Virus record (IMG/VR): IMGVR_UViG_3300033149_006567
Span: 33,843-97,842 of that record
Reading direction: 5' to 3' (one strand)
DNA from: a virus
Length of the DNA: 64,000 nucleotides
The notes under the pieces were generated by a model. It was given only the letters and a program-made list of their open reading frames with translations. It ran no database searches and was not told where the DNA came from. Numbering within the stretch: position 1 is the first letter of the stretch; each line of letters opens with the position of its first letter. Positions 10,980 through 37,385 of this stretch are shown here, in pieces. Position numbers and translations under genes: made by a program.

Positions 10980-10980
10980 G

Positions 10981-13194: not shown

Positions 13195-13203
13195 GAGGTT
13201 CCT

Positions 13204-16283: not shown

Positions 16284-16312
16284 TTGCCTTGCCTTATTTT
16301 ATCTGTTATAAT
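16284..16312 (+). promoter_or_regulatory. Sigma70-like promoter for the actin/glycan operon
   Basis: TTGCCT-N17-TATAAT with extended -10 TG, just after the fibre gene stop. Confidence 0.6.
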
Positions 16313-16346
16313 CATTTTGGTTCTCAAATTTCGAGGGAAATTTTCT

Positions 16347-16778
16347 GTGGCCGATCGACTAAGGTTAAATAAAGACGGTAAAGTAGTCAAAGATCATAAT
16401 CTTCCTGGCTTTAAAAAGGGAGGGGCGTTTTCAGTTCCCTCTCTTTCTATTGACGAAAAGCAGTTGAAAAGGTTGGCCATTATTGTTGGGAAAACCATCG
16501 CCAGGGAACTACTTAAGCATCCGGAATTATTTAAGACTGAAGTGACTCTTAAACCAGCTTTATTGCCCGAAAGCGTTCAATATCCCCAGGTAACTTACGA
16601 TGACATACGGACACCCGATGATTGGAGTAAGCTAGAGGACATAGTTGACGTGGGGGTGTCTACGGAGGGAATGGAAGGTTCTTTTGATGAAGCTTTTAAA
16701 GAGGAGCTGGTTAAGGATGAAGGCGTCGAGGGGGCCCGAGAAAAATTATCTAAGTTGAAAAGTAAGCAGGGAGTTTAG
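16347..16778 (+). CDS. Hypothetical protein upstream of the actin gene (probable GTG start at 16347)
   Basis: GAGGG RBS before GTG; the longer ORF-track N-terminus reads through the T-rich promoter. Confidence 0.55.
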   Translation: MADRLRLNKDGKVVKDHNLPGFKKGGAFSVPSLSIDEKQLKRLAIIVGKTIARELLKHPELFKTEVTLKPALLPESVQYPQVTYDDIRTPDDWSKLEDIVDVGVSTEGMEGSFDEAFKEELVKDEGVEGAREKLSKLKSKQGV

Positions 16779-16779
16779 A

Positions 16780-17775
16780 ATGTTAGGTTTAGATGTAGGG
16801 ACGTCTTATGTTATTGGGGCCAGGGAAACTGACAAGGGGATAACTTATCGAGAGTTTCGGGACGCCTTTTTCAGGATTAAGCCCGCTACGCCCATAGCGG
16901 CCAAGATGATAGAGAAGGGTTTGAAAGGCACCAAATATTTTAAAGATTCGGATGGAAGTTTCGTTGTTATTGACAAGGAGGCTATTGTCAAGGCAGTTGA
17001 GAGGAACTCGTCGGCTCTAAGGCCTCTTGCTCGAGGGATTTTATCTCCCAAAGAGAGGGATGCTCGCAGGGTATTCAAGTTCCTTTTGGGCAAATTACTA
17101 GGCAAGCCGAAAGAAAAGAAGGAAAAGCTTGTTTATTCGATTCCTGCGGCTCCGGCAGACGTATCCTCAGACGATTTCGATGTTGGATATCACTGCGATG
17201 CCATTGGGAACGATCTTAAGGAACTCGGTTTTGATCCCAGCCCCTTAAATGAGGCAGAGGCAATTTGTTATGCAGAATTAGAAGAGGATGATTATACGGG
17301 CGTTTCTATTTCGGCAGGCGCGGGAATGCAAAATGTTTGTGTCATGTCTTCTGGTGAGCCAGTATTAATATTTAGTCTAGCCAGGTCTGGAGATTATGTT
17401 GATCGTATGGCTGCGGCTTCTACAGCGGAACCGGATTCTGTTGTTCAAATGGAGAAGGAGGCTGGAGATTGGGAAGTGGGGAAGGAAAATGAGAATCGTA
17501 TTTTGAGCGCTGTTTCCATATATTACGTCAGACTTATTAAATACGTAGTAGAAATGCTTTCGAAAAAGCTTAATTCAGCAGATGAACTTCCCAGGTTTCC
17601 TTCAGCGATACCAGTTGTTTTGTCTGGGGGAACTTCGCTAGCGAAGGGGTACGTAGAGGAGTTTAAAAAGCAGTTGGCCCCGGTTGATTTGCCGTTCGAA
17701 GTCAAGGAAGTTCGTCACGCTAAGGAGCCCCTTAGGGCTGTCGCAAAAGGCTGCTTAATCGCCGCGTCTTTATAG
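16780..17775 (+). CDS. Actin-family ATPase, volactin-like
   Basis: Phosphate-1 GLDVGT, connect-1 NEAEA, phosphate-2 ISAGAGMQN, adenosine LSGGTS, connect-2 EPLRAVAKG. Confidence 0.85.
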   Translation: MLGLDVGTSYVIGARETDKGITYREFRDAFFRIKPATPIAAKMIEKGLKGTKYFKDSDGSFVVIDKEAIVKAVERNSSALRPLARGILSPKERDARRVFKFLLGKLLGKPKEKKEKLVYSIPAAPADVSSDDFDVGYHCDAIGNDLKELGFDPSPLNEAEAICYAELEEDDYTGVSISAGAGMQNVCVMSSGEPVLIFSLARSGDYVDRMAAASTAEPDSVVQMEKEAGDWEVGKENENRILSAVSIYYVRLIKYVVEMLSKKLNSADELPRFPSAIPVVLSGGTSLAKGYVEEFKKQLAPVDLPFEVKEVRHAKEPLRAVAKGCLIAASL

Positions 17776-17783
17776 GACCCCAG

Positions 17784-18890
17784 ATGGCTAAAAAACTTGC
17801 TTTAAATAAGAACGGGGTTGTTACTAAAAGAATTAATATGCCAGACCTTAAGGTTGTTCCAACGACTAAAGCTGGGCGCAGATTGGTTCGGTTGCATAAG
17901 TTGATAGTCGGAGAGTCTCCTAAGATATGTATTGTTCGAGGTGGAGGAATAGGCGACCTTTTGATGACTACTCCTGCTGCTAAATTTATCAAGAAGCAGT
18001 ATCCTCATGTCCATCTGACTTATGCCGTTGACTTTCATTATTTAGACGGGGCTCTTCCTTCAGTTTTAGAGGGTAATCCTTATGTTGACAAGGTAGTCCA
18101 CTGGAAGTCATATGACGAAGATGATTTTGATGCTGTTTTAAATCTTCAGTGTCCTTGTGTTGCTCACGAAAGACCAGGCGCGAAACCGATTAGCAGAATA
18201 GACCTTTTTGCTCGTCACCTGGGTATTTATGAGATGGAAGATAAGCGGCCCGTTTACGTCGGATCAGCGGAAGAGGACGCAGAAGTTGACGCTTGGTTAA
18301 ATAGTCGGCTTCATTATGATAGTTCTCGTCATAAATTACTTGTTGTGAGTCCTTTTTCTTCTGCTGGTGGACGTAGTTTTCCGATTGAGAGGATGAAAGA
18401 GACTCTTAGGTATGTTAAACAGGTTCTTCCTGAGGTAAAGGTGGTTGTTTGCACTCATGACTCAGATTTTCTCAAGGACACGTACTGGGATTCTGTTGCA
18501 GATGCTGTAGCTCATGAATTTAAAGTTCGAAAATTTGCTTCTCTTTTGAGTTTTTCTCGATTAGTTCTTTGTCAGGATTCAGCTGCTCTTCATCTTTGCG
18601 GGGCACTTGACATTTCTGTTTTGGCCCTTTTTGGTTCCACCGATCCTCGCGCCAGAGTAAATCATTACCCTAAGGCGGTCGGGTACTGTCCAGGTCTTAA
18701 GCTGCAGTGTTTTCCATGTTGGTATAATTACGGAAATTGTTCTCACAGTACTTGTTGGCGTTTGATAGAGCCGAAAGACGTGGCCGGTATTATGGTAAAT
18801 ATGTTGACTCAAAAACCAGTTGTGTCCGAGTTTCTATCCCTCGGAGAGAAAAAACCTCCGAGAAATCGCATTCGAACTGAAACCCTTTAG
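17784..18890 (+). CDS. Glycosyltransferase family 9 (heptosyltransferase-like)
   Basis: RGGGIGDLLMTTP, DSAALHL, LFGSTDP, and a C-terminal CFPCW...C...C cluster. Confidence 0.85.
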   Translation: MAKKLALNKNGVVTKRINMPDLKVVPTTKAGRRLVRLHKLIVGESPKICIVRGGGIGDLLMTTPAAKFIKKQYPHVHLTYAVDFHYLDGALPSVLEGNPYVDKVVHWKSYDEDDFDAVLNLQCPCVAHERPGAKPISRIDLFARHLGIYEMEDKRPVYVGSAEEDAEVDAWLNSRLHYDSSRHKLLVVSPFSSAGGRSFPIERMKETLRYVKQVLPEVKVVVCTHDSDFLKDTYWDSVADAVAHEFKVRKFASLLSFSRLVLCQDSAALHLCGALDISVLALFGSTDPRARVNHYPKAVGYCPGLKLQCFPCWYNYGNCSHSTCWRLIEPKDVAGIMVNMLTQKPVVSEFLSLGEKKPPRNRIRTETL

Positions 18891-18903
18891 CCCGAGTCCC
18901 CAG

Positions 18904-20178
18904 ATGTCTAAAAAAATTAAGCTACTTGCTTGGTGCGATTTGGTTGCGCATACAGGTTTTTCAAATGTAGCAGAGCATGTCTTGAAGGCACTTTATTCTA
19001 CCGGGTTATATGATATAGATGTTTTAGCCATCAATTATCACGGAGACTTTCTCGATAAAGAAAGATATCCTTATCAAATAGTTCCGGCTAAACTGAAGGA
19101 CCCCAAGGATCCCTATGGAAAGGGCATGTTCGTTAGGTCTCTAGAGAATAAGGCCTATGATGCTGTTTGGATAATAAATGACGTGTATGTGGTTGAACCT
19201 GTTTCTAGGGCCGTGACGCAGATGAAAGAGGCTTTTCAGAATAGAGGGAAGACGCCTCCCTGTATTTTCTATTACTTTCCAATAGATAGCAAGCTTTTGC
19301 CTGGATATTCGGGGATGATCAAGGTAGCTGATGTTCCTGTTGCTTATACTCAGTTTGCTTTGGATGAAACTCTGAAGACAGTCCCCTCTCTAAAGTCCAA
19401 GAATATCCCGATTATTTATCATGGAGTCGACACTTCTGTTTTCCGCCCCCTTTCGCTCGAGGAGCGCTCTAGATGGCGAAGAGATTATTTGAAAGTCGAA
19501 GATGACACTTTTGTTATTATTAACGTCAATAGAAACAGTGAGAGAAAACAGTTAACTAGAACTCTATTGGCTTTTGAGGAGTTTAGAAAACATGTTCCGA
19601 AGTCTAAGCTTTATGTGCATGCAGCCCCCAGAGATTCTGGCATTGATCTTTTTTCTGCTTGCAATGATCTAGGATTTGACATAAGGAGGGATGTCATATT
19701 TCCTGACCCAAGAAATTTTTCGCCATCTAAGGGGTATCCGGCTGAGGTGTTAAATCGGTTTTATAATGCAGCTGATTGCTTTCTGACGACTACCCTAGGC
19801 GAGGGATACGGGTTGTGCGCCCAAGAATCTCTCGCTGCTGAGATTCCCGTAGTTGTTCCCGATAATACCGTTCATCCTGAAATTTTTGGAGAAGATGGAG
19901 AACGAGCTCTAATATATGATTGCAAAGAACTTATTTGGGTAGACAACACTGCCTATCGCCCCCTGGGTCGAGTGGAAGACATAGTCGAGAAATTGCTCCA
20001 GGTTTATAACGAGCCCCTAGATGCCAAGCGATCTCGAGCTAAAAGAGGACGTGAATGGTGTGTTAAAAATGACTGGAAAGAGATAGGGGAGCAATGGATA
20101 AGTCTCTTTAATAGAGAGCTTTCTTCTAGAAAAGTTAAGGGGGAAGATACTTCTCGCATTAAGGCTAGTTTGGTATGA
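18904..20178 (+). CDS. Glycosyltransferase family 4
   Basis: TGFSNVA, IYHGVD, NRNSERK, EGYGLCAQE (Ex7E); probable ATG at 18904. Confidence 0.85.
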   Translation: MSKKIKLLAWCDLVAHTGFSNVAEHVLKALYSTGLYDIDVLAINYHGDFLDKERYPYQIVPAKLKDPKDPYGKGMFVRSLENKAYDAVWIINDVYVVEPVSRAVTQMKEAFQNRGKTPPCIFYYFPIDSKLLPGYSGMIKVADVPVAYTQFALDETLKTVPSLKSKNIPIIYHGVDTSVFRPLSLEERSRWRRDYLKVEDDTFVIINVNRNSERKQLTRTLLAFEEFRKHVPKSKLYVHAAPRDSGIDLFSACNDLGFDIRRDVIFPDPRNFSPSKGYPAEVLNRFYNAADCFLTTTLGEGYGLCAQESLAAEIPVVVPDNTVHPEIFGEDGERALIYDCKELIWVDNTAYRPLGRVEDIVEKLLQVYNEPLDAKRSRAKRGREWCVKNDWKEIGEQWISLFNRELSSRKVKGEDTSRIKASLV

Positions 20179-20185
20179 GGAAAAA

Positions 20186-22450
20186 ATGTCTCTAAAGATT
20201 AGATGGGTAGGTCCTTACTCGGATCCTTGTTATGATGATCAGACTGAGGTGTTAACTTCTAGCGGTTGGAAATTTTTCAAAGATATTTCTTTCGAAGATG
20301 GTCTTGCCACTCTGAATGAATGGCATATCATAGAATACCAAAAGCCTTCTCATATAATAAACAGAGAGTATGAGGGCGAAATGTATTACCTGGACGCTCC
20401 AAGGGCTAAAATAAATATTTGTGTGACTCCTAATCATTCTATGTACGTGACTACGGAAAGCGGTAGGCGTTCAGGGCGAGCGAATGCGTGGCGTCTCGAA
20501 GAGGCGAGGGATATATATGGGAAAACGCGAGCTTTTAAAAGAGATGGTCGGTGGCGAAAAAAGGGGAAGGAGCATTTTCGGATATGTGGAAGAAAGATAA
20601 AGGCGGAGCATTGGCTGGAGTTTTTGGGATATTATCTTAGCGAAGGATCTGCAACTATTTACAAAAGGCCTGCTGGTGTTACAAAAGGGGGCAGGCATCC
20701 GGTATATAGGGATCGTTACGTGAATAGGACTTACGAGCGTTCTGAGTCAACAGAGTACATATTGCAAATCAGGCAGGTTAAAGGCGAGGAGAATCGGGTT
20801 CGAATGGCAGAGGCGGTTCGGCGAGTGACGAATAATTCGGTAAATACTCGAAACAAAGACGGGCGAATACTGGTGCACGACAAAGATCTGGTGCTTTATT
20901 TGAAGCGATTTGGAAATTGCTGTACCAAGTATATACCGAGAGACGTGTTAAACAAATGCTCTAAGGAACAGCTGGAGGTACTTTTCGAAGCTCTTGTTTT
21001 GGGAGGCGGAACAGACAACAGAAAGAAAGGTGGCGGGGTTATTTACAAGACCTTTTCCAAACGCCTTCGGGACGATTTTCTGGAGCTATTGCTTAAAGTC
21101 GGATTTTCTGGGCACTATAAGCGTGAGATCGTGAAGGGCGAAGAGATAAGAATAAACGGCAGAGTTTGCCATGCGAAAGAGGATGGCTGGAAAATAGGGG
21201 TACGATTTAAAAACCGCGGTTTTTTGAAAAAATCATCTCAATGTTCGGTCCCGAGTAAACATGAAGAAAAGATAGTCCCCTATAAGGGGCGAATTTATTG
21301 CGCTACGGTCCCTAACCATGTGCTTTTTGTAAGGCGAAATGGCTGCGTTTTATGGTGTGGGAACTCGGGCTACGGTAGTAACTCGAGAAAGTTCGTGCAT
21401 GCCCTATATAAGTTGCAAAAAAAATACGACTTTCGTCTTGGAACTATGCCGGTTTCTTTCGAAAAACAAAGGGCGGATTATGGAGAGGCCGGAAGAATTT
21501 GTAAACGCCTGGAGGAGCATGCACTTCAAGAGGACATCCGGATAATTAACACTACTCCAGAGTTTTATGATCGTTTGAAAAGGCCCGGAGTGTTAAATGC
21601 TGCTTATGTTACATTCGAACTAGATGGTATTCCCGATTTATGGGTCAGAGAGCTTAACAAGATGGACGCGGTATTTACTACGGCGGAGTTTTGTGCGGAA
21701 GTGTTTAGGAAGAGTGGGGTAAAAACGCCAGTATTTTCTGTCCCCCCGGGCTTGTTTCCCGAAGATTATCGGAGAGTGGAACCGTTGTCCTCCCTAGATG
21801 TCCCCGAAGATGTCTTTTCTTTTTATTCTATCTTTCAGTGGACTCCTCGCAAAAATCCCCAGGCTTTACTTCATGCGTATTGGTCGGAATTCACTGGACA
21901 AGATGATGTTTGTCTGGTTCTGAAGACTTACAAGAATGATACGTCTCCTCAGCAAGTTGATATGCTCAGGAGAATTATTGCTCAGGAAAAACGGGGTTTT
22001 CGGCTTGATCATCACCCCAAGATATTCTTTATCTCTCAATTGTTGAGTGCTAGTCAATTAGAAGATTTACATTTGTCTTGTGACGCCTTTGTCTCGACTA
22101 CGGCAGGGGAAGGAAATTTTATCCCCGCTTTTAACGCCATGGCATATGCTAAGCCAGTAATAGTTACGGGGTGGTCTGGGCATACAGAATATTGTCGACC
22201 CGAATATAATTATTTGTCTAAATACCAATTGAGGCCAGCTCACTCGATGAGTTGGTGTGCCTGGAATGAGGCTCGATTTAATTGGGCCGATGTTAATATA
22301 CTTCATTTTCGAAAATTGATGCGAGAGGTTTATGAAAATCGAGCCCAGGCGAAGAAGAAAGCTGAGAAAGGACAGCGATTTTTATTTAAGGAGTTTTCTT
22401 GGGAAAAAATGATTAAAAGACTCGTAGATGGTATTGAGGAGGTTTTGTGA
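20186..22450 (+). CDS. GT4-type glycosyltransferase interrupted by an intein
   Basis: Exteins join as WVGPYSDP/SGYGSNSR; QWTPRKN, GEGNFIP, VIVTGWSGH. Confidence 0.85.
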   Translation: MSLKIRWVGPYSDPCYDDQTEVLTSSGWKFFKDISFEDGLATLNEWHIIEYQKPSHIINREYEGEMYYLDAPRAKINICVTPNHSMYVTTESGRRSGRANAWRLEEARDIYGKTRAFKRDGRWRKKGKEHFRICGRKIKAEHWLEFLGYYLSEGSATIYKRPAGVTKGGRHPVYRDRYVNRTYERSESTEYILQIRQVKGEENRVRMAEAVRRVTNNSVNTRNKDGRILVHDKDLVLYLKRFGNCCTKYIPRDVLNKCSKEQLEVLFEALVLGGGTDNRKKGGGVIYKTFSKRLRDDFLELLLKVGFSGHYKREIVKGEEIRINGRVCHAKEDGWKIGVRFKNRGFLKKSSQCSVPSKHEEKIVPYKGRIYCATVPNHVLFVRRNGCVLWCGNSGYGSNSRKFVHALYKLQKKYDFRLGTMPVSFEKQRADYGEAGRICKRLEEHALQEDIRIINTTPEFYDRLKRPGVLNAAYVTFELDGIPDLWVRELNKMDAVFTTAEFCAEVFRKSGVKTPVFSVPPGLFPEDYRRVEPLSSLDVPEDVFSFYSIFQWTPRKNPQALLHAYWSEFTGQDDVCLVLKTYKNDTSPQQVDMLRRIIAQEKRGFRLDHHPKIFFISQLLSASQLEDLHLSCDAFVSTTAGEGNFIPAFNAMAYAKPVIVTGWSGHTEYCRPEYNYLSKYQLRPAHSMSWCAWNEARFNWADVNILHFRKLMREVYENRAQAKKKAEKGQRFLFKEFSWEKMIKRLVDGIEEVL
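20228..21364 (+). mobile_element. Intein (379 aa) with LAGLIDADG homing endonuclease domain
   Basis: Starts CYDDQTEVLT; block B VTPNH; FLGYYLSEG and LFEALVLGGG; ends YCATVPNH...VLWCGN followed by Ser. Confidence 0.9.
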
Positions 22451-23393
22451 AGTGGAACATACGGCAGCAGTAATTGGTTGCGGCTATTGGGGTCCCAATA
22501 TAGCTCGTAATTTAGTTGATTTTGCTAACCTAAAATATGTTGTTGACAAAAATCTAGAGCTTGCTTCTGGAGTTGCAGGAAAATATGAAGGGGTCCAGGC
22601 CATAGGGGACGTTCAGGTCGCCCTGGATGATGAAGAAGTTGATATGATTGCGATAGTGACTCCTCCATCAACTCATGCTGAATTGACAGAAAGAGCCTTG
22701 GCAGCGAACAAGCATGTCTTCGTAGAGAAACCCCTTGCTCATTCAGAAAAAGATGCCATGAGGATGCTAAACGTCGCTTTAGAATATCCTTACGCGGTTT
22801 GCTGCGTGGGACATACTTTTTTGTTTGTCCCCGAGATAATCAAGATGAGAGAGCTTATAAAAAATGGTCTTATCGGAAATATAGACCTTATCAGTGTAAG
22901 TCGTTTGAACTTCGGGAAATATCAGGAATGTGGTGTGGCAATGGACTTGTTACCCCATGACATTTCTATTATGGAGTTCCTTTTAGACAGAGAAAGTTAT
23001 CCTTTGGGGATGTCTACTGCTGAATTAGGTGGAATTAGCGTGGTGGGTTCGGCGACTTTTGGCTTTAAGGGGTCTTCCGCCAGGGGAGCTGCTGCCATGA
23101 GCTGGGTACATACCGATAAGACAAGGAAGCTGATAGTCACTGGTAGCCGAGGCGTACTTGAATTCGACATGAGCATGCCGCATTTTGTTAAGCATTATGT
23201 CGGGCGGGATGTTCGGGTGAACCGATCTGGAGATTTACGATTAATTGAGATCGATGACCACTCAGAGGCTCTCGCGTCTGAAATGAAGTATTGGATAAGC
23301 TTGATAAATAATCCGGGTTCTAAAAATAAGATTAGCTTTACTCGAGGCTACAGTGTGGTTAAGACCATCGAAGGGTTAAGAGATGGCCCATAG
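22428..23393 (+). CDS. Gfo/Idh/MocA oxidoreductase (WbpB/WlbA-like sugar dehydrogenase)
   Basis: IGCGYWGPNIARN, HVFVEKP, DLLPHD. Confidence 0.85.
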   Translation: MVLRRFCEVEHTAAVIGCGYWGPNIARNLVDFANLKYVVDKNLELASGVAGKYEGVQAIGDVQVALDDEEVDMIAIVTPPSTHAELTERALAANKHVFVEKPLAHSEKDAMRMLNVALEYPYAVCCVGHTFLFVPEIIKMRELIKNGLIGNIDLISVSRLNFGKYQECGVAMDLLPHDISIMEFLLDRESYPLGMSTAELGGISVVGSATFGFKGSSARGAAAMSWVHTDKTRKLIVTGSRGVLEFDMSMPHFVKHYVGRDVRVNRSGDLRLIEIDDHSEALASEMKYWISLINNPGSKNKISFTRGYSVVKTIEGLRDGP

Positions 23394-24150
23394 GGAAAAC
23401 ATCGTCATTGGACAGGGAGAAACAGGAGCTCCGCTTCTTAAGGTGCTTAAGAGAGGCGACTTGGGGGCAGCTGGAGTAGATATCCAAAAGGGTTTTGATG
23501 TTAGGGGGGGGACAACCTGTACTTTTCTTCATGTATGCATCCCGGGAGGTTTGGATAATTTTGTCGACATAGTGAATGGGTATAAAAAGCGTTTTAGTCC
23601 AGATATTATTATTATTCATAGTACCGTTTTTCCTGGGACGACGAGGAAGATAGGTCATGTTCCGACTCGTACCTTTCATAGTCCCATAAATGGAAAGCAT
23701 AAAGAAATGTACGAGGCTCTTCTCCGTCACCCTAAGTTTTTTAGTGTGGCAGAGGAATGCTTGGGGTCGATCGCTAAGATAGAAAATCTTTATTCTGGCT
23801 GTGGGATGCGTCCCGAATATGTAGAGGGTGGACCTGAAACTACTGAGCTTGGAAAGATATTGGCCACTACGGCATATTACTATAATATCGTTTGGGCCCA
23901 ACAAGTCCAGGCTATTTGTGAGGAGCTGGGAGTAAACGAGAAAGAGGCGAAAAAGTGCTATGAGCTTATTGAGTCCTCCGACTATACCATGAAGGGAAAG
24001 TTCGCCGGAGCAGTTGGGGGGCATTGTTGCCGCGAGAACGTCTGGCTTCTTGAGGAGGGTGGCGTATCTTCGGATCTCCTTGACTACCTTTCTAGGTCAG
24101 ACGAAGATTTTCGAATAAGACATAAAATAGACCCTGATTGGCGTCGGTAA
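23383..24150 (+). CDS. UDP-glucose/GDP-mannose dehydrogenase-family protein, short form
   Basis: GQGETG, HSTVFPGTT, ELGK...NIVWA...ICEELG, catalytic GGHC; apparently lacks the C-terminal UDP-binding domain. Confidence 0.7.
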   Translation: MAHRENIVIGQGETGAPLLKVLKRGDLGAAGVDIQKGFDVRGGTTCTFLHVCIPGGLDNFVDIVNGYKKRFSPDIIIIHSTVFPGTTRKIGHVPTRTFHSPINGKHKEMYEALLRHPKFFSVAEECLGSIAKIENLYSGCGMRPEYVEGGPETTELGKILATTAYYYNIVWAQQVQAICEELGVNEKEAKKCYELIESSDYTMKGKFAGAVGGHCCRENVWLLEEGGVSSDLLDYLSRSDEDFRIRHKIDPDWRR

Positions 24151-25417: not shown

Positions 25418-26190
25418 TACTTCTAGTGACTGGTCCCCCCAGAACGGGTTCTTCTGCTTTATGTAGAGCCTTGAGCATGCACGACAAGATACTTCTTACC
25501 GACGAAATGGGCATTTTTCACGACTACAACTGGAAGCCAAATAAAAAGTATCCCGGAAAGCTCTTGAATTTTCTTAAAAAGCCTGCCAGGCCATTTTTGT
25601 ACCCCGTCTTTAAGAAGAAGGGCATCTCCAGGAGCGCCCTAGAGGCCTTTGTCGAGAATCAAAAACCTTGTTCGGCTGACGTCCTTAAGTATATGATAAG
25701 AAAGAGTAGTCCAAGACCTCTCATAGCTGGAGACAAGTGTCCCTCTAGTTACTTACTTAGATTCGATGATGTTTCTAGACGAGCCGATAAATTTATTTTT
25801 ACGATGCGAGACGGCCGGGCAGTTATTGCGTCTCAAGTCAGAAACTGGAGAAGAAATTTTCGTCTGAATCGGCCTACTGATCATTGGATGAAGCCGTCCA
25901 TTGAGGGGTCAGTGAAGCTCTGGCTTCGGGACGCCAAGTTGGTTCTGAAATGTTTCAGAAGGGTCCGAGATCGTGCGATTATTTGCCGATACGAGGATTT
26001 TTTTGACGGGAAAACCGATTTGTTCGATTCCATAGGAAGTTTTCTGGAGATTGACGGCGTGGCCCGGGAGGCTAGGAGGTGGTTTAAGCCCGTTCATTTA
26101 TCCTCTTGGCAGGATGAAATCCCTGAGATTGATGATAAAATAACAACGGAGTTTAAATCTGTGCTCCGTGACTTTGGCTATGAGGTTTAA
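25414..26190 (+). CDS. Sulfotransferase-family protein 3
   Basis: GPPRTGSS, GDKCP, MRDGRAVIAS, RYEDF. Confidence 0.8.
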   Translation: MILLVTGPPRTGSSALCRALSMHDKILLTDEMGIFHDYNWKPNKKYPGKLLNFLKKPARPFLYPVFKKKGISRSALEAFVENQKPCSADVLKYMIRKSSPRPLIAGDKCPSSYLLRFDDVSRRADKFIFTMRDGRAVIASQVRNWRRNFRLNRPTDHWMKPSIEGSVKLWLRDAKLVLKCFRRVRDRAIICRYEDFFDGKTDLFDSIGSFLEIDGVAREARRWFKPVHLSSWQDEIPEIDDKITTEFKSVLRDFGYEV

Positions 26191-26192
26191 TT

Positions 26193-27038
26193 ATGTCTAT
26201 CGCCGCCCTCTATCGTGTCCATAATGTCGAAAGAATGGACTATCCCTTTGAACAGTCAGTCCGTCAAACCCTGCTTTTGTGCGATGAGATTTGCGTTGCG
26301 GCTGGTTATTCAGAAGATAATACTCTTGAGATTATTCTGAATTTGCAAAAAGAATTCGGGAAGGATAGGGTTAAGTATGTACAGTACGAGTTTGTGTATA
26401 ACAGAGAATGGCAAGTGCTTGCCTGGAATAAGGCCCGGAAGCTCACTAAAGCCGACTGGCTCTTGCTCATAGACGCCGACGAGGCTTTTCACGAGCAAGA
26501 CATTCCTCGACTTAAGAAAATGCTCAAGAAGACAGATAGGCAATTGGTTAATTTTCCTATGTACCACTTCTATGGAACGCCAAATTTTTTAGTCACCGGA
26601 GGTCATTTTTACAAGAGGCATACGAGGATGGGTTGTAAGGGAATAAAATTCGGGATGAAGAACTTCCGTCGCGATGGCAATTTAGCGCCCGTGTGCGATG
26701 TTGTGGCGACTCTCGGGGGGCGTGAAAAGAAAGTTCATAGGTATGGTGGACCTGAGATGCTTCAAGTCGATATTCCTATTTATCATTACGGATGGGTTCG
26801 TTCTGCCGAAGCTATGGGTATGAGACGGGTAAAGGGGCGTGCTTGGTATACAAATGACAAGAAGTTTTTCGATGGGCATCTACCTGAATTAAAAAAGCGG
26901 TTTAATTATCAAATGAAAAAAAATCGTTCTGTTTATAAAAACTTTAAGGGGACTCATCCAAGATTTATGAGGAGCTGGTTTGAGAAAGACCCCCACCCCA
27001 AAGAATGGGATACCCTTAGGAGGCAGGCCGATGAGTAA
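26193..27038 (+). CDS. Glycosyltransferase family 2-like
   Basis: WLLLIDADE (DxD), SEDNT, IYHYGW. Confidence 0.8.
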   Translation: MSIAALYRVHNVERMDYPFEQSVRQTLLLCDEICVAAGYSEDNTLEIILNLQKEFGKDRVKYVQYEFVYNREWQVLAWNKARKLTKADWLLLIDADEAFHEQDIPRLKKMLKKTDRQLVNFPMYHFYGTPNFLVTGGHFYKRHTRMGCKGIKFGMKNFRRDGNLAPVCDVVATLGGREKKVHRYGGPEMLQVDIPIYHYGWVRSAEAMGMRRVKGRAWYTNDKKFFDGHLPELKKRFNYQMKKNRSVYKNFKGTHPRFMRSWFEKDPHPKEWDTLRRQADE

Positions 27039-27783
27039 GCCTCGCGTATCTGCGATCATGTTGGTGTTAAACGAGCGCTTTTACATAAAGGCCTCGATGT
27101 ATAATGCTCTTCAGTTTTTTGACGAGATATTAGTCCTTGACGGAGGTTCTCAAGATGGAACATTTGAGTTTTTAGAGGAATTTGCCTCTAAATTTTCTAG
27201 GGTCAAGATCGAGCAATGGCCTCAAGCTGACGCAAGACATTATCACCCTAGTTGGAATCAACCCGCTCGATGGAACAAGCTTATCGAGAAGGCTCGGTTT
27301 GATTGGATAGCGGTGCTTGGCGCAGATGAATGTTGGTGTGACCATGCTCGACCTAGACGTTTGATAATGAAGTATCAGGATACTCCGGCTTTTGCTTTTC
27401 CCAGATATGCCGTTACCGGAAGGCATGAATATACTCCCAATTGGTTTCCAGATTATCAACTTCGGCTATTTGACAGGGCTGCCCTCGGGGGAGTTCGTTT
27501 CAAAAATATGCCTCGACATTGCACTCCAAAAACCCACATGGGGGCCGGAAGTACTCCTCCGAAGAAAAATTTTAAGAAATATTATTTAGTTCATTACCAT
27601 CATGGATTTGGACCCAAAAGACACTCTCTCGGCAAGGGTATGAGAGTTGAAAAACTTCCTGGCTCTTTCGATCATCCTCGACATGCCCGCAAATATATAA
27701 TCAACCACCCAGAAAGGGTAGATTTTAAATATGATTTTCGGCTATATGGAAGGGCTGGGTTTGTCCCCAAGGAGACTCGATAG
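27031..27783 (+). CDS. Glycosyltransferase family 2-like
   Basis: AGGAGG RBS; LDGGSQDGT, LGADE, FPDYQLRLF. Confidence 0.8.
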   Translation: MSKPRVSAIMLVLNERFYIKASMYNALQFFDEILVLDGGSQDGTFEFLEEFASKFSRVKIEQWPQADARHYHPSWNQPARWNKLIEKARFDWIAVLGADECWCDHARPRRLIMKYQDTPAFAFPRYAVTGRHEYTPNWFPDYQLRLFDRAALGGVRFKNMPRHCTPKTHMGAGSTPPKKNFKKYYLVHYHHGFGPKRHSLGKGMRVEKLPGSFDHPRHARKYIINHPERVDFKYDFRLYGRAGFVPKETR

Positions 27784-28719
27784 ATGGCGAAACCAAAAAT
27801 CTTAATGATAGTCGGTTTTGATTGGGCCAATGCGGCTTACAAAATGTACGAGGCTATTAACGAATTTGGAGATGTAGCTTCCATCCGTCTTTGGACTCGG
27901 TGGCCCTTTAAGGCACAAGGAAAGCGTAAGGGCTACAAGTATGACATGAAGGGGAATGAGCAACTTGCCGAGGCAAAGAATCTTGTCAAGGAGGCCGATG
28001 TCATACATTTTATAGATAGGGCTCATCCAGCGTTATCAAAGTCTCCCCTGCCAGCATTGGCTCCTCCCGACAAGAAGGCAATAGTGAGTCTGAATACATC
28101 GGCGTGGTATTCGGTGGGACCAGGAAGAGTCAAAAAGCTGTACGGCAAAATTAAAAATCGAAACCAAAATTGCTTAATTACCACCCTTACCGCTTCTATG
28201 CCTCTTCAGGCTATTCCCTTTAAGTATACTCCGCAACCAATAGACACCAGAAAGATAGGGTTCAGGGAAAAAGTTTTTTCTCGAGAGAAGCTTGTTGTTG
28301 GTCACATGCCATTTTCTGGAAGGTTTGGGAAAAAGGGAACCAGGGAGATACAGGAGGCATTAAAAAGATACGAGAAGGCTGAGCTTCGTATTACAACTGG
28401 AGCTTCCCAAGAAGAGGCCATCGCTCGGAAAAGAAAGCTTGATGTTCTGATAGATCAGCTGGTGCTAGGGGCTTATGGCTACAACGCCCTAGAAGCCGCT
28501 TGTATCGGCATCCCGGTTATGTGCCATTTAAAAGAGGATTGCTGGCCATTAATTAATTGTCGGCGAGATGGGACGGATATACCTCAGAAGTTGGATTGGC
28601 TACAAGATCGTGCGAAACGGAAAACCGTGGGTAAGAAAACTCGGCGTTGGGTTGAAGAGACTCATGGTTATCCAGTTATAGGCAAAATGTGGAGTGAAAT
28701 ATACCGTGATTTTTGTTAA
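27784..28719 (+). CDS. GT-B fold glycosyltransferase (GT4-like)
   Basis: KKGT, DQLVLGAYGYNALEAACIGIPV, WVEETH. Confidence 0.75.
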   Translation: MAKPKILMIVGFDWANAAYKMYEAINEFGDVASIRLWTRWPFKAQGKRKGYKYDMKGNEQLAEAKNLVKEADVIHFIDRAHPALSKSPLPALAPPDKKAIVSLNTSAWYSVGPGRVKKLYGKIKNRNQNCLITTLTASMPLQAIPFKYTPQPIDTRKIGFREKVFSREKLVVGHMPFSGRFGKKGTREIQEALKRYEKAELRITTGASQEEAIARKRKLDVLIDQLVLGAYGYNALEAACIGIPVMCHLKEDCWPLINCRRDGTDIPQKLDWLQDRAKRKTVGKKTRRWVEETHGYPVIGKMWSEIYRDFC

Positions 28720-29413
28720 ACAATATGGTGAACGAAGAACTTGCACTAATCTTGCAAAATATTTTGTGGAGCAGAATACTGTCGGAGTCGAAGTCTTGGC
28801 TTCGGTTTTGGGGTGGAAACACGGGTTTCATTCTGGGAAAATAGACTGGAGTGGAGAAACATGGGGCGAGGAATATGGTAGGCCGCTTAAAGATCAAGTT
28901 AAAAATCTTTTGGAGATAAAAGAGGCTTATACGGCAGGGGAATTGAGATACTTAGTTTGTGTGAAAGATCCGTATTCTTGGTGTTTATCCTTTGCTCGCT
29001 ATCAAAGAAAAATAAACCCTGTTGGGTACGTAAGACCTGCTTATTTAAAAAATATCATTGGTGTTTGGAACAAAAAGTATTTGAACTGGGAAAAGCTTTT
29101 AAATTCTGTTGAATTGAGTTTTTTATTTCGTTACGAGGATTTTCTTCGTGAGCCGAGGAGCGTGAGAGAGAGGCTGCTTAAGTCTTTATGTCTTCCTGGT
29201 AGTCAGAAAAGTTCTCTATCTTTTCCTCAGAAATTTTCCAGGGGAGGGCAGAGGCTTAACAAAAAAAACGCTTTTTCTTCTACTGCTTTTGATAGGGATT
29301 ACTACCTGAATAGGCGGTATATGAAATTCTATAATTCTGATCACAAGGGCATATTCAGGAAGTGTCTGGATATCGCTCTGGCGAAAAGACTAGGATACAC
29401 ATTGTGCGAGTAG
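28694..29413 (+). CDS. Sulfotransferase-fold protein 4
   Basis: GERRTCTN, KDPYSWCLS, RYEDFL. Confidence 0.7.
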   Translation: MKYTVIFVKQYGERRTCTNLAKYFVEQNTVGVEVLASVLGWKHGFHSGKIDWSGETWGEEYGRPLKDQVKNLLEIKEAYTAGELRYLVCVKDPYSWCLSFARYQRKINPVGYVRPAYLKNIIGVWNKKYLNWEKLLNSVELSFLFRYEDFLREPRSVRERLLKSLCLPGSQKSSLSFPQKFSRGGQRLNKKNAFSSTAFDRDYYLNRRYMKFYNSDHKGIFRKCLDIALAKRLGYTLCE

Positions 29414-30222
29414 GTTTTTCAAAAAGAAAGCCCGTAGAGTCTGCGGTGGCTCGAGCTTTTTCGACTTTAGGACATGAGGTCATTTTTAAAAGAAGCAAGG
29501 CTGATTTTGAGAGTTTTGTTCGGAACAATAACCTAGACATTCTTTTTCTGTCTTCTAGCGCCCCCGTTCCTTCCCCCAAGATTGTCCAAAAATTACAGAA
29601 TAATTGTCGAGTTATCTACTGGGAGAGAAGGGCTCCTCCAAAAGGAATAGACAATAATCGCTATCGATTTAGGAACTATTTTACCATTTATAATGACGGG
29701 AGTGGGCGGTATCTTCCTTGCGCAGCGGAAGATCACCTATTTCTTAAGGAGGACGAAAGGTACGGGGTTTCGCTGGTGGCAAAAGATGTTTTCAAAAAGC
29801 CACGGAAGAGACAGCATGAGAAAAGAGTCCGATTGCAGAAGATGATATTCAAAGACGCATCGAATAGGTTTACGATGTACGGGGATATTCCCGAGAAAAG
29901 ATACGATGATCGTTTTGAAATAATGGCGAATTCTGTTTGTTCTATCGGGATTTGGAATGCTGACAAAGCGGTTCCTCTTCGATATTTTGAGATAATTTCA
30001 ACTTCTACGCCATTGATAACCTACCCCTATGAGACATTCAGGAGTCTGTTTGTTCCGGGGGAGCATTACGTGGAGACAGAGTCTCTTTCCCTGACCCTAG
30101 ATGCCTTATCTGGAGATAAAGAACGTTTTGAGGCGATAGGTCGAGCGGGTTATGAACATTTTTTGCAATATCATACTTATAAGCATCGAGTCAAATTTAT
30201 GCTGAATCACCTGAAGGGATAG
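29362..30222 (+). CDS. CgeB/Glyco_trans_1_2-like glycosyltransferase
   Basis: RYFEI...FVPGEHY...IGRAGY...HTYKHRV; true start may be slightly downstream. Confidence 0.7.
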   Translation: MSGYRSGEKTRIHIVRVGFSKRKPVESAVARAFSTLGHEVIFKRSKADFESFVRNNNLDILFLSSSAPVPSPKIVQKLQNNCRVIYWERRAPPKGIDNNRYRFRNYFTIYNDGSGRYLPCAAEDHLFLKEDERYGVSLVAKDVFKKPRKRQHEKRVRLQKMIFKDASNRFTMYGDIPEKRYDDRFEIMANSVCSIGIWNADKAVPLRYFEIISTSTPLITYPYETFRSLFVPGEHYVETESLSLTLDALSGDKERFEAIGRAGYEHFLQYHTYKHRVKFMLNHLKG

Positions 30223-30229
30223 TGGCGCA

Positions 30230-30679
30230 TTGAAAGGGGAAGTTATTTTAAAAGCTGATGATTTTGTCCGATTAGATGACAAGTGGAAGAGGTTCTTTTT
30301 TATTTTAGAGCAGTCGGACGTTTTGGCTTCTGTTGGAGTTTCTGGGAAACATTTTCTTCCTAAGTCAAGGAAAAGGGGCAGTTACTCAGATGTCCAAAAG
30401 ATTTATCAAATTGGAAAGTCAGCCAAGATAGCAGAAAAATTTGAAGAACCGATTGAACTTCTTTGGATTGATGGAGACCACTCTCATAAGGGGGCAAAGG
30501 AGGATATATCGAATTGGCGGAAGTTTGTCATTGTTGGAGGGATAATGGCTTTTCATGATTATGGAAGAAGTGGCGTAACACAGGCGGTTGATGAGTTTCT
30601 AGAAAAGGAATCGGATTGCTGGGAGGTTGTCTCGAACAGAGAGGTGGGCAGCATTTTTGTGCTGAGGAGACTGAAGTAG
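30230..30679 (+). pseudogene. Probable chimeric remnant: deacetylase-like N-terminus fused to the C-terminal half of a class I SAM methyltransferase
   Basis: ILKADDF N-terminus, then LLWIDGDH...GGIMAFHDY...GVTQAVDE without SAM-binding motif I. Confidence 0.55.
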
Positions 30680-30732
30680 TTGAAAAGAGCACACCCATAG
30701 ACATCGAGCGAAACAGATACTGAGTGTTTTAA

Positions 30733-31491
30733 ATGTTTAATTGGCCATTAAATCAGCGTTGTGCAGTGTCTTTGACCTATGACGATGGGAGAAAAACTCA
30801 TTGTAAAGCAGCTGTTCCGCTGTTAAATAAATACGGACTAAAGGGCACTTTTTATGTGGATTCTAGTTCAAAGTTTTTTAGAAGGCGACCCTATTTGTGG
30901 AAGAAAGTTGCCGAGGCAGGACACGAGCTGGGGAATCATGGCCTTTTTCATTCTTGTCGAAGAATTGAATCTCGGAAGGAGTGGCTGAAGCCTTATTTGG
31001 ATTTGTGCGAATATACTCCAGACAGATTCGAAGAAGAACTTCAGATGGCGAATTTTATTTTATATTTAATAGACGGCAAAAAGAAAAGAACTTACGGAAA
31101 TACCTGTTGGGACATCACTATTGGACGAGGAAAAGGAGAGGTGTCCATGGATGCTATTTTAAGGAAGAATTTTATTGCCGCCAGAGGTCCTCTCCGCCAG
31201 AAACCAGCCAGGATTGATTCGGAATTTAATTTGATGCAGGTAGGGACTTTGCAGGCTGACGGGAAAACTTTCTCAGATCTGCAGCGTTTTATCGTCAAGG
31301 CGACCTTTCCCGGGAGTTGGGTAGTTTTGACCATTCATGGAGTTCAAGAAGATGGGCCGGGCCTGTTTTTAGAAAGCAAGGAACATCGGCGTTTAATTGA
31401 GTGGCTTTCGGCCCAAAGAAACAACATATGGACTGCTCCGTTCATAGAAGTCGCTCGATACGTCAGAGACCGGCGGGAAAAGAAATCTTAG
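30733..31491 (+). CDS. Polysaccharide deacetylase (NodB/CE4-like)
   Basis: SLTYDDG, GTFYV, GHELGNHGLFH, VLTIHG. Confidence 0.85.
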   Translation: MFNWPLNQRCAVSLTYDDGRKTHCKAAVPLLNKYGLKGTFYVDSSSKFFRRRPYLWKKVAEAGHELGNHGLFHSCRRIESRKEWLKPYLDLCEYTPDRFEEELQMANFILYLIDGKKKRTYGNTCWDITIGRGKGEVSMDAILRKNFIAARGPLRQKPARIDSEFNLMQVGTLQADGKTFSDLQRFIVKATFPGSWVVLTIHGVQEDGPGLFLESKEHRRLIEWLSAQRNNIWTAPFIEVARYVRDRREKKS

Positions 31492-31761
31492 ATGCTTAAG
31501 TTGGAGAAAAAATTTCGGAATCGTGTTACTGGAGAAGTATTTTCCGACTTCTTGGATGTGATTGGCGATAGGGTTACCTTAAACTATTCTTTTAGATATT
31601 GTAGTGGTGGATATCGAGGGGAATGCGGAAAAATTGCCAAGAAAAATGCGCTTTCAACACCGACTCTTTGGTTCGAGAAATTCCTCGCAAGCAACGACGC
31701 TATCGCCTCGGGGGAGATATATCACGAGGCAGAAGTCGAGAGGGTGGGCGGCAATGGTTAA
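31492..31761 (+). CDS. Hypothetical protein or gene fragment
   Basis: 89 aa, abuts the upstream stop; no motif recognised. Confidence 0.35.
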   Translation: MLKLEKKFRNRVTGEVFSDFLDVIGDRVTLNYSFRYCSGGYRGECGKIAKKNALSTPTLWFEKFLASNDAIASGEIYHEAEVERVGGNG

Positions 31762-31843
31762 GTTGGACTTCTGTTTCCCTTATTGAGCATTTAGTTAATC
31801 AGGGAGTTAAAATAAAATTTTAGAATAGAAGGGAAGGTAAGGG

Positions 31844-32344
31844 ATGGGAGAAAGAGGCAATTTTATACATCCTTCTGCGGCAAAATTCGTCAAAAGAAAT
31901 AAGGTTCGGTTAGGCGTGGGGGTTGTGGTATGCAAAGGAGTCCGAATTGGAAAAAATGTTTACATAAACAACAATGTCGTTATTCAAAAGGGGGCTCATA
32001 TAGGAAATCATGTCGGGATACAAGCTTTGGCTCATATATGTGTAAACGCCATTATTGAAGATGACGTTTTTATTGGGCCTAGTGTGTCTTTGGCGGGCGT
32101 AAGAGATATCAGGCATGGGCGAGGACCTTATGTCAGAGAGGCCCCGGTAATCAAGAGGGGGGCTCGGATCGGCGTGGGTGCTATCATTTTACCAGGGGTT
32201 GTCGTTGGAGAGGAGTGTTTAATAGGGGCTGGAGCTGTTGTCACGAAAAGTACAGAGCCATTTGGTATTTATATGGGTTGTCCAGCTCGAAAAGTTGGAG
32301 TTGTGGAAGAAAAAGATCGCCTGAAAAAGGAGATGAAATCATGA
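31844..32344 (+). CDS. Hexapeptide-repeat acyltransferase (WbpD/WlbB-like)
   Basis: IEDDVFIGP, IKRGARIGVGAIILPGVVVG, GAGAVVTK, GCPAR. Confidence 0.85.
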   Translation: MGERGNFIHPSAAKFVKRNKVRLGVGVVVCKGVRIGKNVYINNNVVIQKGAHIGNHVGIQALAHICVNAIIEDDVFIGPSVSLAGVRDIRHGRGPYVREAPVIKRGARIGVGAIILPGVVVGEECLIGAGAVVTKSTEPFGIYMGCPARKVGVVEEKDRLKKEMKS

Positions 32345-32637
32345 GAACATGTATGGTCGGGGGGTCTAGAAGCGGGACAACAGTGGTGAGTTGTTTGTTG
32401 AGGCTATTTCCTCGCTTATTCGCCGTCAATGAAGCTCGACGGAAGCCGAGAGAGCTCGGCCTAGAGGTCAATATAATTTTTATTCATCTCGAGAATTTTC
32501 TGCTATCAATAAGAAGAAAAATCGTGTGGGCTATTTCAAACATTTTATTCCCGATTAGCAAAAACAGTTTTCTAATGAAGCAAAGAAATATCTTAAAAAA
32601 TATAAGTACATCTGATTTTTTCAAACTTTCTTCTTGA
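32341..32637 (+). pseudogene. Truncated sulfotransferase remnant
   Basis: MVGGSRSGTTVVSCLL...NE start, then degenerates into AT-rich sequence. Confidence 0.5.
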
Positions 32638-32663
32638 CCCCGCTCCTCTTTCTGTGGTATTCT
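32634..32663 (+). promoter_or_regulatory. Sigma70-like promoter for the nuclease/primase-helicase unit
   Basis: TTGACC-N18-TATTCT with TG extension, followed by an AAGGAG RBS. Confidence 0.55.
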
Positions 32664-33633: not shown

Positions 33634-33650
33634 AACTAGCAGGTATCCAG

Positions 33651-37372: not shown

Positions 37373-37385
37373 AAAGGAGTTTTAG

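Follow-up and report, generated by a model that had tools for sequence, protein, structure and literature searches.

The window analysed here is a 64-kb stretch of DNA, the right-hand part of a 97.8-kb linear IMG/VR viral contig (IMGVR_UViG_3300033149_006567) that CheckV rates as ~51% complete. The phage is uncultured, has a genome of ~190 kb and comes from vent or sediment samples. After its tail genes the window carries a block of densely packed genes on the plus strand (16347–32344; gaps of at most ~80 bp, many overlaps), which encodes an actin-family protein together with seven glycosyltransferases, four sulfotransferases and further sugar-modifying enzymes. The block is best explained, at a probability of roughly 60%, as two modules of different ancestry, a phage glycan line and an actin–adaptor accessory. 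The glycan line is phage-borne and unusually elaborate, and the actin is probably a separate cassette that has been wired, in this sublineage, to the address of the first glycosyltransferase.

The first module would be a phage-encoded, soluble glycan assembly line with a core of one GT9 and two GT4 glycosyltransferases. Among the tailoring enzymes, a 3-dehydrogenase, a 3-aminotransferase and an N-acetyltransferase are predicted to yield a 3-acetamido (possibly 2,3-diacetamido-uronic) sugar, and four further glycosyltransferases would extend the chain. Methylation, partial de-N-acetylation and sulfation of the chain would follow, the last by four sulfotransferases of the type that uses 3'-phosphoadenosine-5'-phosphosulfate (PAPS), drawing on host PAPS. 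Virion proteins are the tentatively favoured acceptor, ahead of a host lipid-linked envelope acceptor exported by host machinery, which is somewhat less likely. In the second module, a volactin-family actin would be bound by the C-terminal tail of a small adaptor whose N-terminus serves as the anchor. This anchor would be a membrane helix in most phages and a copy of the N-terminal hairpin of GT9 here, so that the filaments and GT9 probably dock at one site. The actin would be an accessory to the glycan line and not a requirement.

Distribution of the glycan core and the actin

Homologues of the GT9 protein at E<1e-47 number ~80 and come almost entirely from uncultured metagenome sources; after them, at 1e-8, follow cellular GT9 proteins, a gap of about 40 orders of E-value. 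Scanning viral contigs with an alignment of this clade identified 37 loci, in which the window proteins were placed by tblastn; single-sequence scans of viral contigs with GT9 or with the 662-aa upstream protein gave no matches. The order GT9–GT4–GT4 is present in 11 of the 37 loci, with orthologues of the second member 40–44% identical and directly 3' of GT9. Where upstream sequence is available, the trio usually comes directly after homologues of the structural genes of the window (6117–14247). GT9 follows nuclease and primase genes in a second group of loci.

Downstream of the trio the gene content differs by phage. Loci L084, L086 and L089 carry methyltransferases, nucleoside diphosphate (NDP)-sugar dehydratases and epimerases, a nucleotidyltransferase and other glycosyltransferases behind the trio, with a Sulfotransfer_2 protein as well in L089. 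L098 and L099 share with the window an NDP-sugar dehydrogenase-like protein, an oxidoreductase of the GFO/IDH/MocA family (GFO), both GT2 glycosyltransferases (46–47% identity) and a DegT-family aminotransferase. The constancy of the trio and the variation behind it point to a conserved core with a hypervariable tailoring set. A clade of ~190-kb phages retains the GT9–GT4–GT4 core throughout; the relatives rated 91–100% complete are 174–198 kb in length, and three of them have terminal repeats.

No volactin-family gene occurs anywhere in five GT9-bearing relatives (four complete, one ~91% complete), which indicates that the glycan core works without the actin. The actin likewise occurs without the core. 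In the 82 rIIA/rIIB-type actin loci that were examined, which include two huge-phage records (30–35% identity), the neighbours are rIIA, rIIB, a RuvB-like ATPase, a subtilase and an HNH nuclease; there is no adjacent glycosyltransferase and no GT9. The first-pass annotation, made from the letters of the window, had presented the actin as coupled to the glycan pathway; an integral role is contradicted by both sets of genomes.

The same annotation had raised the possibility of a chimeric assembly, or of recent passive capture of a host lipopolysaccharide (LPS) or capsule locus. The gene families are indeed typical of bacterial polysaccharide loci; however, several observations leave this explanation scarcely credible. 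GC content and skew are uniform through the whole block, and many independent viral contigs, complete genomes with terminal repeats among them, have the trio in synteny with phage structural genes. The GT9 clade is found almost only on uncultured metagenome or viral contigs, well separated from cellular GT9 as described above, and the sulfotransferases are orphans. At least half of the sampled words of the stretch are also present in two sequencing runs from two studies (a hydrothermal vent and a sediment metagenome), one of which may be the source sample. None of the runs listed as containing the stretch is an RNA run.

Gene content

The genes of the block and two related genes further downstream are as follows, together with a candidate promoter. 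Assignments are mostly Pfam profile matches unless another basis is stated.

16284–16312, plus strand: sigma-70-like promoter candidate (TTGCCT, 17-nt spacer, TATAAT, with TG ahead of the -10 as in an extended -10)
16347–16778, plus strand: putative actin adaptor, 143 aa, GTG start (tail alignment, complex model, N-terminal peptide identity)
16780–17775, plus strand: volactin-family actin-fold ATPase (PF25216 Volactin, 3.2e-58, 198 bits against a cut-off of 35)
17784–18890, plus strand: GT9-fold glycosyltransferase (GT9 PF01075, 35.4 bits against a cut-off of 22)
18904–20178, plus strand: GT4, second member of the core trio, start approximate (18820 or 18904) (Glycos_transf_1)
20186–22450, plus strand: GT4, third member of the core trio, interrupted by an intein (C-terminal Glycos_transf_1; weak LAGLIDADG match)
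22428–23393, plus strand: GFO/IDH/MocA oxidoreductase, probably a nucleotide-sugar 3-dehydrogenase
23383–24150, plus strand: short NDP-sugar dehydrogenase-like protein, 255 aa (central UDPG_MGDP_dh domain only)
24151–24864, 24788–25417 and 25414–26190, plus strand: three tandem sulfotransferase paralogues (Sulfotransfer_3)
26193–27038 and 27031–27783, plus strand: two GT2 glycosyltransferases (Glycos_transf_2)
27784–28719, plus strand: seventh glycosyltransferase, GT-B fold (GT1/GT4-like), no Pfam match (Atlas feature score 0.98; structure template-modelling (TM) score 0.82)
28694–29413, plus strand: fourth sulfotransferase paralogue, no Pfam match (RTGTN, K.PYSW and RYED motifs in common)
29362–30222, plus strand: Glyco_trans_1_2 (CgeB-like) glycosyltransferase (PF13524, 8.8e-14)
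30230–30679, plus strand: class I methyltransferase, Methyltransf_24, probably a sugar O-methyltransferase (PF13578, 2.6e-10)
30733–31491, plus strand: CE4 polysaccharide deacetylase (PF01522, 3.3e-15)
31844–32344, plus strand: left-handed beta-helix hexapeptide N-acetyltransferase of the 3-amino-sugar type (Hexapep and PDB matches)
36608–37372, plus strand: TauE/SafE (TSUP) permease with seven hydrophobic segments (PF01925, 5.3e-24; hydropathy)
37386–38507, plus strand: DegT-family sugar 3-aminotransferase (PF01041, 2.2e-97)

The packed ~16-kb run after the tail genes described by the first-pass annotation is borne out: all genes from 16347 to 32344 lie on the plus strand, and the genes upstream match virion structural PHROGs. 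Profiles, structure or motifs support its seven glycosyltransferases, four sulfotransferases, actin, two oxidoreductases, CE4 deacetylase and acyltransferase, and the small protein placed ahead of the actin is the 143-aa product that starts at the GTG at 16347. Details of the list need revision, however. The Methyltransf_24 gene, a family that recurs in the clusters of relatives, was left out, and the pathway runs past the end given at 32640, with the permease and aminotransferase genes at 36608–38507. An open reading frame at 32215–32637 (140 aa, isoelectric point (pI) 10.3, no family match) shares 130 nt with the 3' end of the acetyltransferase gene and is probably spurious. The Atlas matches of the GT-B protein are GT1/GT4 clusters.

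No membrane segment is predicted in any enzyme of the block, in keeping with the cytoplasmic assembly line for a sulfated glycan that the first-pass annotation proposed; the set is soluble and phage-borne. From GT9 to the acetyltransferase, both included, 13 of the 17 enzymes have a pI of 9.0–10.1, compared with 4–5.5 for the virion proteins.

The GT9 protein

The AlphaFold 2 model of GT9 has a predicted local distance difference test (pLDDT) score of 90.8, with an N-terminal beta-hairpin (residues 5–15) at 81–88. Foldseek matches at probability 1.0 are 3tov, 1psw, 2h1h and 4rb4, with WaaF, WaaC and TibC among them, and a profile search of PDB sequences returned 3tov, WaaC and WaaF. The protein thus shares the GT-B fold and the GT9 signature with WaaC, WaaF and TibC. 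It differs from them in that identity is only 14–18% and in having the added N-terminal hairpin and a Cys-rich stretch near the C-terminus. Against the NCBIfam heptosyltransferase equivalogs it reaches 40 bits, far below the 185 required. Neither the PDB sequence search nor the fold search separates lipid-acting from protein-acting GT9 relatives, and the fold and sequence of this protein do not tell a lipid from a protein acceptor. The Cys-rich stretch (C-x2-C-x6-C-x4-C, residues 309–324) is partly conserved in the clade. The protein heptosyltransferase TibC has an iron-binding cysteine motif.

The actin–adaptor cassette

The actin matches PF25216 over its full length (3–321 of 321 positions), a match confirmed on the contig, compared with ~19 bits for MreB and Salactin, and its nucleotide-binding motifs (D5, G7, T8, G180, G182, G283 and G284) are among the columns invariant in 29 homologues. 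Homologues at ~55% identity are present in 171 viral stretches, and over 170 viral contigs carry the actin–adaptor cassette. The sole constant neighbour of the actin is a gene of ~105 aa directly upstream of it (76 of the 82 loci), the product of which starts with a hydrophobic helix and ends in a conserved tail. The tail of the 143-aa protein in the window aligns with the small gene upstream of the actin in 27 other loci. Actin and adaptor form a self-contained cassette.

A model of the adaptor–actin complex, built with custom alignments, has an interface score (ipSAE) of 0.61, compared with 0.00 for the best control; of 80 solved complexes, 58 attained the mark applied to this score, as did 2 of 110 mismatched pairs. 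Over three runs, agreement is at least 53% of contacts, and the pLDDT of the partner is at least 51. The interface comprises adaptor residues 99–141, the C-terminal tail, and a groove on the actin that includes residues 137–145, 164–172 and 319–331. The model supports, short of proof, binding of the adaptor to actin through its conserved tail. Neither Pfam nor PHROG domains nor any recognisable DNA-binding domain were found in the adaptors (centromere repeats were not searched for).

The pairing of an actin-fold ATPase with a small adaptor predicted to bind it is reminiscent of ParM/ParR/parC of plasmids and AlpC/AlpA of prophage CGP3 (PMC4446434, PMC5539076). In those systems, however, the adaptor binds DNA, whereas here it carries a membrane helix or the GT9 hairpin and is encoded upstream of the actin. 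The full-length PF25216 match, well above cut-off, likens the protein to volactin of Haloferax volcanii, which forms dynamic filaments with tips that touch the membrane (Schiller et al. 2024, PMC10869688), a behaviour that fits a membrane-anchored adaptor. Unlike volactin, it is encoded by a phage and comes with a small adaptor that carries a tail. The volactin paper makes no mention of viruses (PMC10869688), and a literature search found no paper describing a phage actin–adaptor pair. Among 50,697 deposited phage records, a volactin-family actin occurs only in two uncultured huge phages and in no cultured phage. The cassette may be an undescribed phage cytoskeleton.

Two further observations concern the cassette. 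Some rIIA/rIIB-type phages (L002:1285–2433; also L003, L018 and L031) have the adaptor fused behind a trypsin-like protease domain; the 382-aa fusion runs from a signal-like helix through the protease and a membrane helix to the actin-binding tail. In cellular genomes, actin homologues (52–55% identity) are found only on six short contigs of metagenome-assembled genomes (L121–L126), in bins of five unrelated lineages (Chitinophagia, Flavobacteriales, Alphaproteobacteria, Thermoplasmatales and Saccharibacteria). Wrong binning of phage contigs is the probable explanation, and they offer no clue to the host.

Association of the actin with GT9

The actin lies immediately upstream of GT9 in 8 of the 11 trio loci (L084, L087, L088, L089, L091, L092, L093 and L097), and is not in that position in L085 and L086. 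The order adaptor–actin–GT9–GT4–GT4 is kept in these eight related loci at only 33–40% GT9 identity. A recurrent actin–GT9–GT4 synteny, which the first-pass annotation proposed to look for, is therefore seen in eight relatives, and actin and a GT9-like gene also adjoin in a distant huge phage, but the synteny does not extend to the five GT9 relatives without actin. In the huge phage, a 595-kb uncultured genome (LR756511.1, L083:10748–13014), a GT9-like gene, a 76-aa gene and a 30% identical actin stand in a row. Its GT9-like protein is 22% identical to that of the window (pairwise E 3e-13) and lacks the hairpin, and the locus constitutes a second, independent actin–GT9 neighbourhood. The gene after the actin in L082, considered as another candidate, is not a GT9 and was rejected.

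The first 23 residues of the adaptor and of GT9 are identical at 12 positions, while the best match to the GT9 peptide among 16,773 other candidate N-termini from all examined loci reaches 8 of 23. The claim of a shared peptide rests on this identity count against background N-termini, as a 32-column hidden Markov model of the hairpin is weak (the adaptor ranks just behind the GT9s at E ~0.8) and a loose regular expression was too noisy. The hairpin peptide stands at the N-terminus of nearly every member of the GT9 clade, including those of phages without actin, and the adaptors of the window, L084 and L087 start with this motif. Those of L089, L091/L092 and L093, and 21 aligned rIIA/rIIB-type adaptors, have the N-terminal hydrophobic helix. 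In the actin tree, the actins of the GT9 clade cluster with support of 95/89 for six members and 90/75 with L097 added. This grouping and the spread of the helix over the adaptors suggest that the helix is probably ancestral and the hairpin a later replacement. The strict hairpin motif occurs in the 97.8-kb contig only in the adaptor and GT9, and in no other enzyme of the block.

Most simply, the filament anchor has probably been redirected to wherever the N-terminus of GT9 docks, whether a membrane site, a third protein or GT9 itself. A more ambitious version is quite unlikely. In it, the adaptor hairpin would plug into GT9 or its docking partner and tether the filament to the first enzyme of the glycan line, giving a cytoskeleton-organised glycosylation factory that coats new virions with sulfated glycan and that evolved, by anchor swap, from a membrane-anchored phage actin. 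The anchor swap itself offers a testable clue to the attachment site of such filaments.

Taken to its full extent, the first-pass annotation amounts to a single integrated system: the glycosyltransferases would build the sulfated glycan onto virion proteins while scaffolded by a filament of the phage actin. The retention of gene order in eight divergent loci, the neighbourhood in the distant huge phage and the GT9 hairpin on the adaptor would all fit such a scaffold. So would the 14 of the 82 rIIA/rIIB-type loci (within L002–L081) in which a ~356-aa GT4, homologous to the C-terminal half of the 20186–22450 protein, is encoded 6–8 kb downstream of the actin. However, GT9 is found without actin in five relatives and the cassette without adjacent glycosyltransferases in 82 loci, the modelled actin contact is the adaptor tail and not the shared peptide, and no other enzyme of the block carries the tag. 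A single integrated system is consequently improbable, and two modules joined at the GT9 address are preferred.

Sugar chemistry and sulfation

The top NCBIfam match of the GFO enzyme is UDP-N-acetylglucosamine (UDP-GlcNAc) 3-dehydrogenase, far below cut-off, and its PDB matches include 7bvj, so that the assignment is at the superfamily level only. The top PDB matches of the DegT aminotransferase are QdtB (3.4e-79) and WbpE (2.7e-67), and those of the acetyltransferase are 7s43, the WxcM-like 4mzu, WlbB (3mqg, 7e-19) and QdtC. These three enzymes together would make a 3-acetamido sugar. The 255-aa NDP-sugar dehydrogenase-like protein covers only positions 113–273 of the 413 in its family model, has a weak match to an NDP-N-acetylgalactosaminuronic acid (NDP-GalNAcA) dehydrogenase (3g79), and may be inactive or need a partner. 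If this truncated enzyme works, the product would be the 2,3-diacetamido-uronic acid of the Wbp/Wlb pathway. A 33% identical counterpart of it is present in L098/L099.

With a 3-dehydrogenase-like GFO protein, a C-3 aminotransferase and a 3-amino-sugar N-acetyltransferase, the set resembles WbpA/B/E/D of Pseudomonas, WlbA/C/B of Bordetella and QdtB/QdtC. It differs from these pathways in that the genes are dispersed (the aminotransferase lies 5 kb off, beyond the primase), the 6-dehydrogenase homologue is truncated and scores are far below equivalog cut-offs.

All four sulfotransferase paralogues keep the R-T-G/A/C-T/S loop, the 5'-phosphosulfate-binding loop, and two of them match Sulfotransfer_3 above cut-off. 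The nearest solved structures to their profile are the CurM sulfotransferase (1.5e-7) and tyrosylprotein sulfotransferases (~0.005). No word-level homologue was found among 5.8 billion proteins, and the four-paralogue profile reaches only unnamed marine-metagenome proteins of ~230 aa at ~1e-30. Four complete relatives have no Sulfotransfer_3 gene, and sulfation is particular to this phage. The sulfotransferase in the tailoring set of L089 (16802–17638) is of a different family, Sulfotransfer_2, and sulfation was seemingly gained more than once in the clade. Neither an adenosine-5'-phosphosulfate (APS) kinase nor a PAPS-reductase-family gene is present on the contig, so host PAPS is presumably used.

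The TauE/SafE permease gene, which adjoins that of the sugar aminotransferase and has a homologue in none of the related loci examined, may supply sulfate or a related anion to the sulfotransferases. The deacetylase beside the sulfotransferases invites the speculation that de-N-acetylation is followed by N-sulfation.

The glycan acceptor

The absence of export machinery and of a base-hydroxymethylase route, as reported by the first-pass annotation for the window, holds as far as the wider searches reach. Bac_transf, Wzy_C and cytosine methylase genes are absent from the five relatives searched, and Wzx (Polysacc_synt), the only one of the export genes looked for in the phage's own contig, from that contig and four relatives; ABC exporters and WecA/MraY-type transferases were outside the search. 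A thymidylate-synthase homologue is present neither in the phage's own contig nor in three of the four relatives rated 99–100% complete. Since no export or DNA-modification route of its own was found, the acceptor would be either cytoplasmic or a host lipid exported by host machinery.

Virion proteins are tentatively preferred. The core stands beside tail genes clade-wide and about a tenth of the genome is invested in the pathway, and the arrangement would be paralleled by known phage and giant-virus systems.

An alternative is remodelling of the host envelope, in which the soluble, basic enzymes work on the inner side of the cell membrane and modify a lipid-linked acceptor of the host (LPS core, or undecaprenyl-PP-GlcNAc of host make). 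A host flippase and ligase would then export the sulfated glycan and alter the cell surface, for example to exclude other phages or to keep progeny from sticking to debris. GT9 does have the LPS heptosyltransferase fold, and a high pI such as that of 13 of the 17 enzymes is common among glycosyltransferases peripheral to the membrane. In the adaptor, a membrane helix and the GT9 hairpin can stand in for each other, and the variable tailoring genes resemble the diversity of O-antigen loci. Nevertheless, an initiating transferase, flippase, polymerase and ligase are absent from the relatives searched for each, and a clade-wide core beside the tail genes is unusual for a moron that acts on the host surface. 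Moreover, the host may lack LPS, and the nearest structural homologues are from Bacillus phages. Envelope remodelling is considered somewhat less likely than a glycan on virion proteins. The block also differs from export loci of the Wzx/Wzy or synthase type in that no initiating transferase, flippase or polymerase match was found in the relatives searched and no membrane protein is encoded within it.

A further proposal is that the glycosyltransferases decorate a hydroxylated pyrimidine in the phage DNA. Some phages encode relatives of LPS glycosyltransferases that attach mono- to trisaccharides, with heptose and uronic acids among the sugars, to DNA (Pyle et al., 10.1101/2023.12.21.572611), and the block resembles such clusters in enzyme type and in an expected multi-sugar product; its basic enzymes would also suit this substrate. 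However, known routes to DNA glycans start from a methylase/dioxygenase or from thymidylate-synthase-like enzymes (10.1101/2023.12.21.572611), and these starter enzymes (methylase, thymidylate-synthase-like) were not found in the relatives searched, thymidylate synthase having been absent from three of four. Seven glycosyltransferases and four sulfotransferases would moreover load negative charge onto DNA that has to be packaged. DNA hypermodification is thus very unlikely; a Tet/JBP search was uninformative, its control having given no signal.

Several points weigh against the preferred combination of a virion glycan and a redirected actin anchor. The truncated dehydrogenase, and scores far below equivalog cut-offs for all sugar enzymes, leave the identity of the sugar tentative. 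The sulfotransferases resemble tyrosylprotein sulfotransferases and carbohydrate enzymes about equally weakly and might act on protein and not on the glycan. The contig is only ~51% complete, and the part of the genome that it lacks could contain genes for export, PAPS or base modification; the acceptor is one that we infer throughout. The adjacency of actin and GT9 in eight relatives could be an inherited order without functional meaning, and the hairpin, which the GT9 monomer model packs with confidence, may have a structural part in the protein and not be a free tag.

Comparison with other viral glycosylation

The phage-encoded glycosylation systems described so far are, to our knowledge, small ones, in which a few glycosyltransferases modify capsid, tail or DNA. 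Chloroviruses and mimiviruses have autonomous cytoplasmic glycosylation. Mycobacteriophage virions are glycosylated by phage-encoded glycosyltransferases, according to a passage in PMC12619734 that cites Freeman et al. 2023. The block resembles these mycobacteriophage and giant-virus systems in its virus-encoded soluble glycosyltransferases and sugar-nucleotide enzymes beside structural genes, in lacking lipid-carrier export and in gene sets that vary between relatives. In contrast to known phage virion glycosylation, which involves few glycosyltransferases and no sulfation, it has seven glycosyltransferases, four sulfotransferases, a methyltransferase and a deacetylase, and its glycan may be carried on virions. 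Core glycosyltransferases in another aquatic large-phage lineage are described in the 'Moraphage' paper (PMC12619734), with no tie to this clade found.

The clade keeps its three-enzyme core by the tail genes and diversifies the rest as bacteria do their O-antigens, at the cost of about a tenth of the genome and, here, with sulfation. Were the glycan carried by virions, it would correspond in phages to the glycan coats of giant viruses and would bear on adsorption, grazing and defence in marine sediments.

Genomic setting and minor features

The products of the genes 5' of the block are large and acidic, with matches to virion structural PHROGs and to proteins of Bacillus phage 0305phi8-36. 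On its 3' side are genes for a nuclease, a DnaG-type primase with an intein, the DNA polymerase III alpha subunit, PhoH and RecA. The first-pass annotation had described the block as promoter-led. The candidate at 16284–16312 is indeed the top-scoring sigma-70-like site of the region, located within the 95 bp between the upstream stop at 16251 and the next gene, but this is a consensus match only, and sigma-70-like sites are in total no more numerous than expected by chance. Such sites precede several genes of the contig, and the promoter is therefore uninformative on timing.

The intein in the third core glycosyltransferase is 379 aa long (Cys15 to Asn393, followed by Ser; nt 20228–21364). 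Orthologues of this protein (373–382 aa) align to residues 1–14 and 394–754, and the intein is absent in eight of them. The GT9 of L091 (653 aa) and the primase of the window (33540–36599) likewise contain inteins, as does a 654-aa gene of the L086 cluster.

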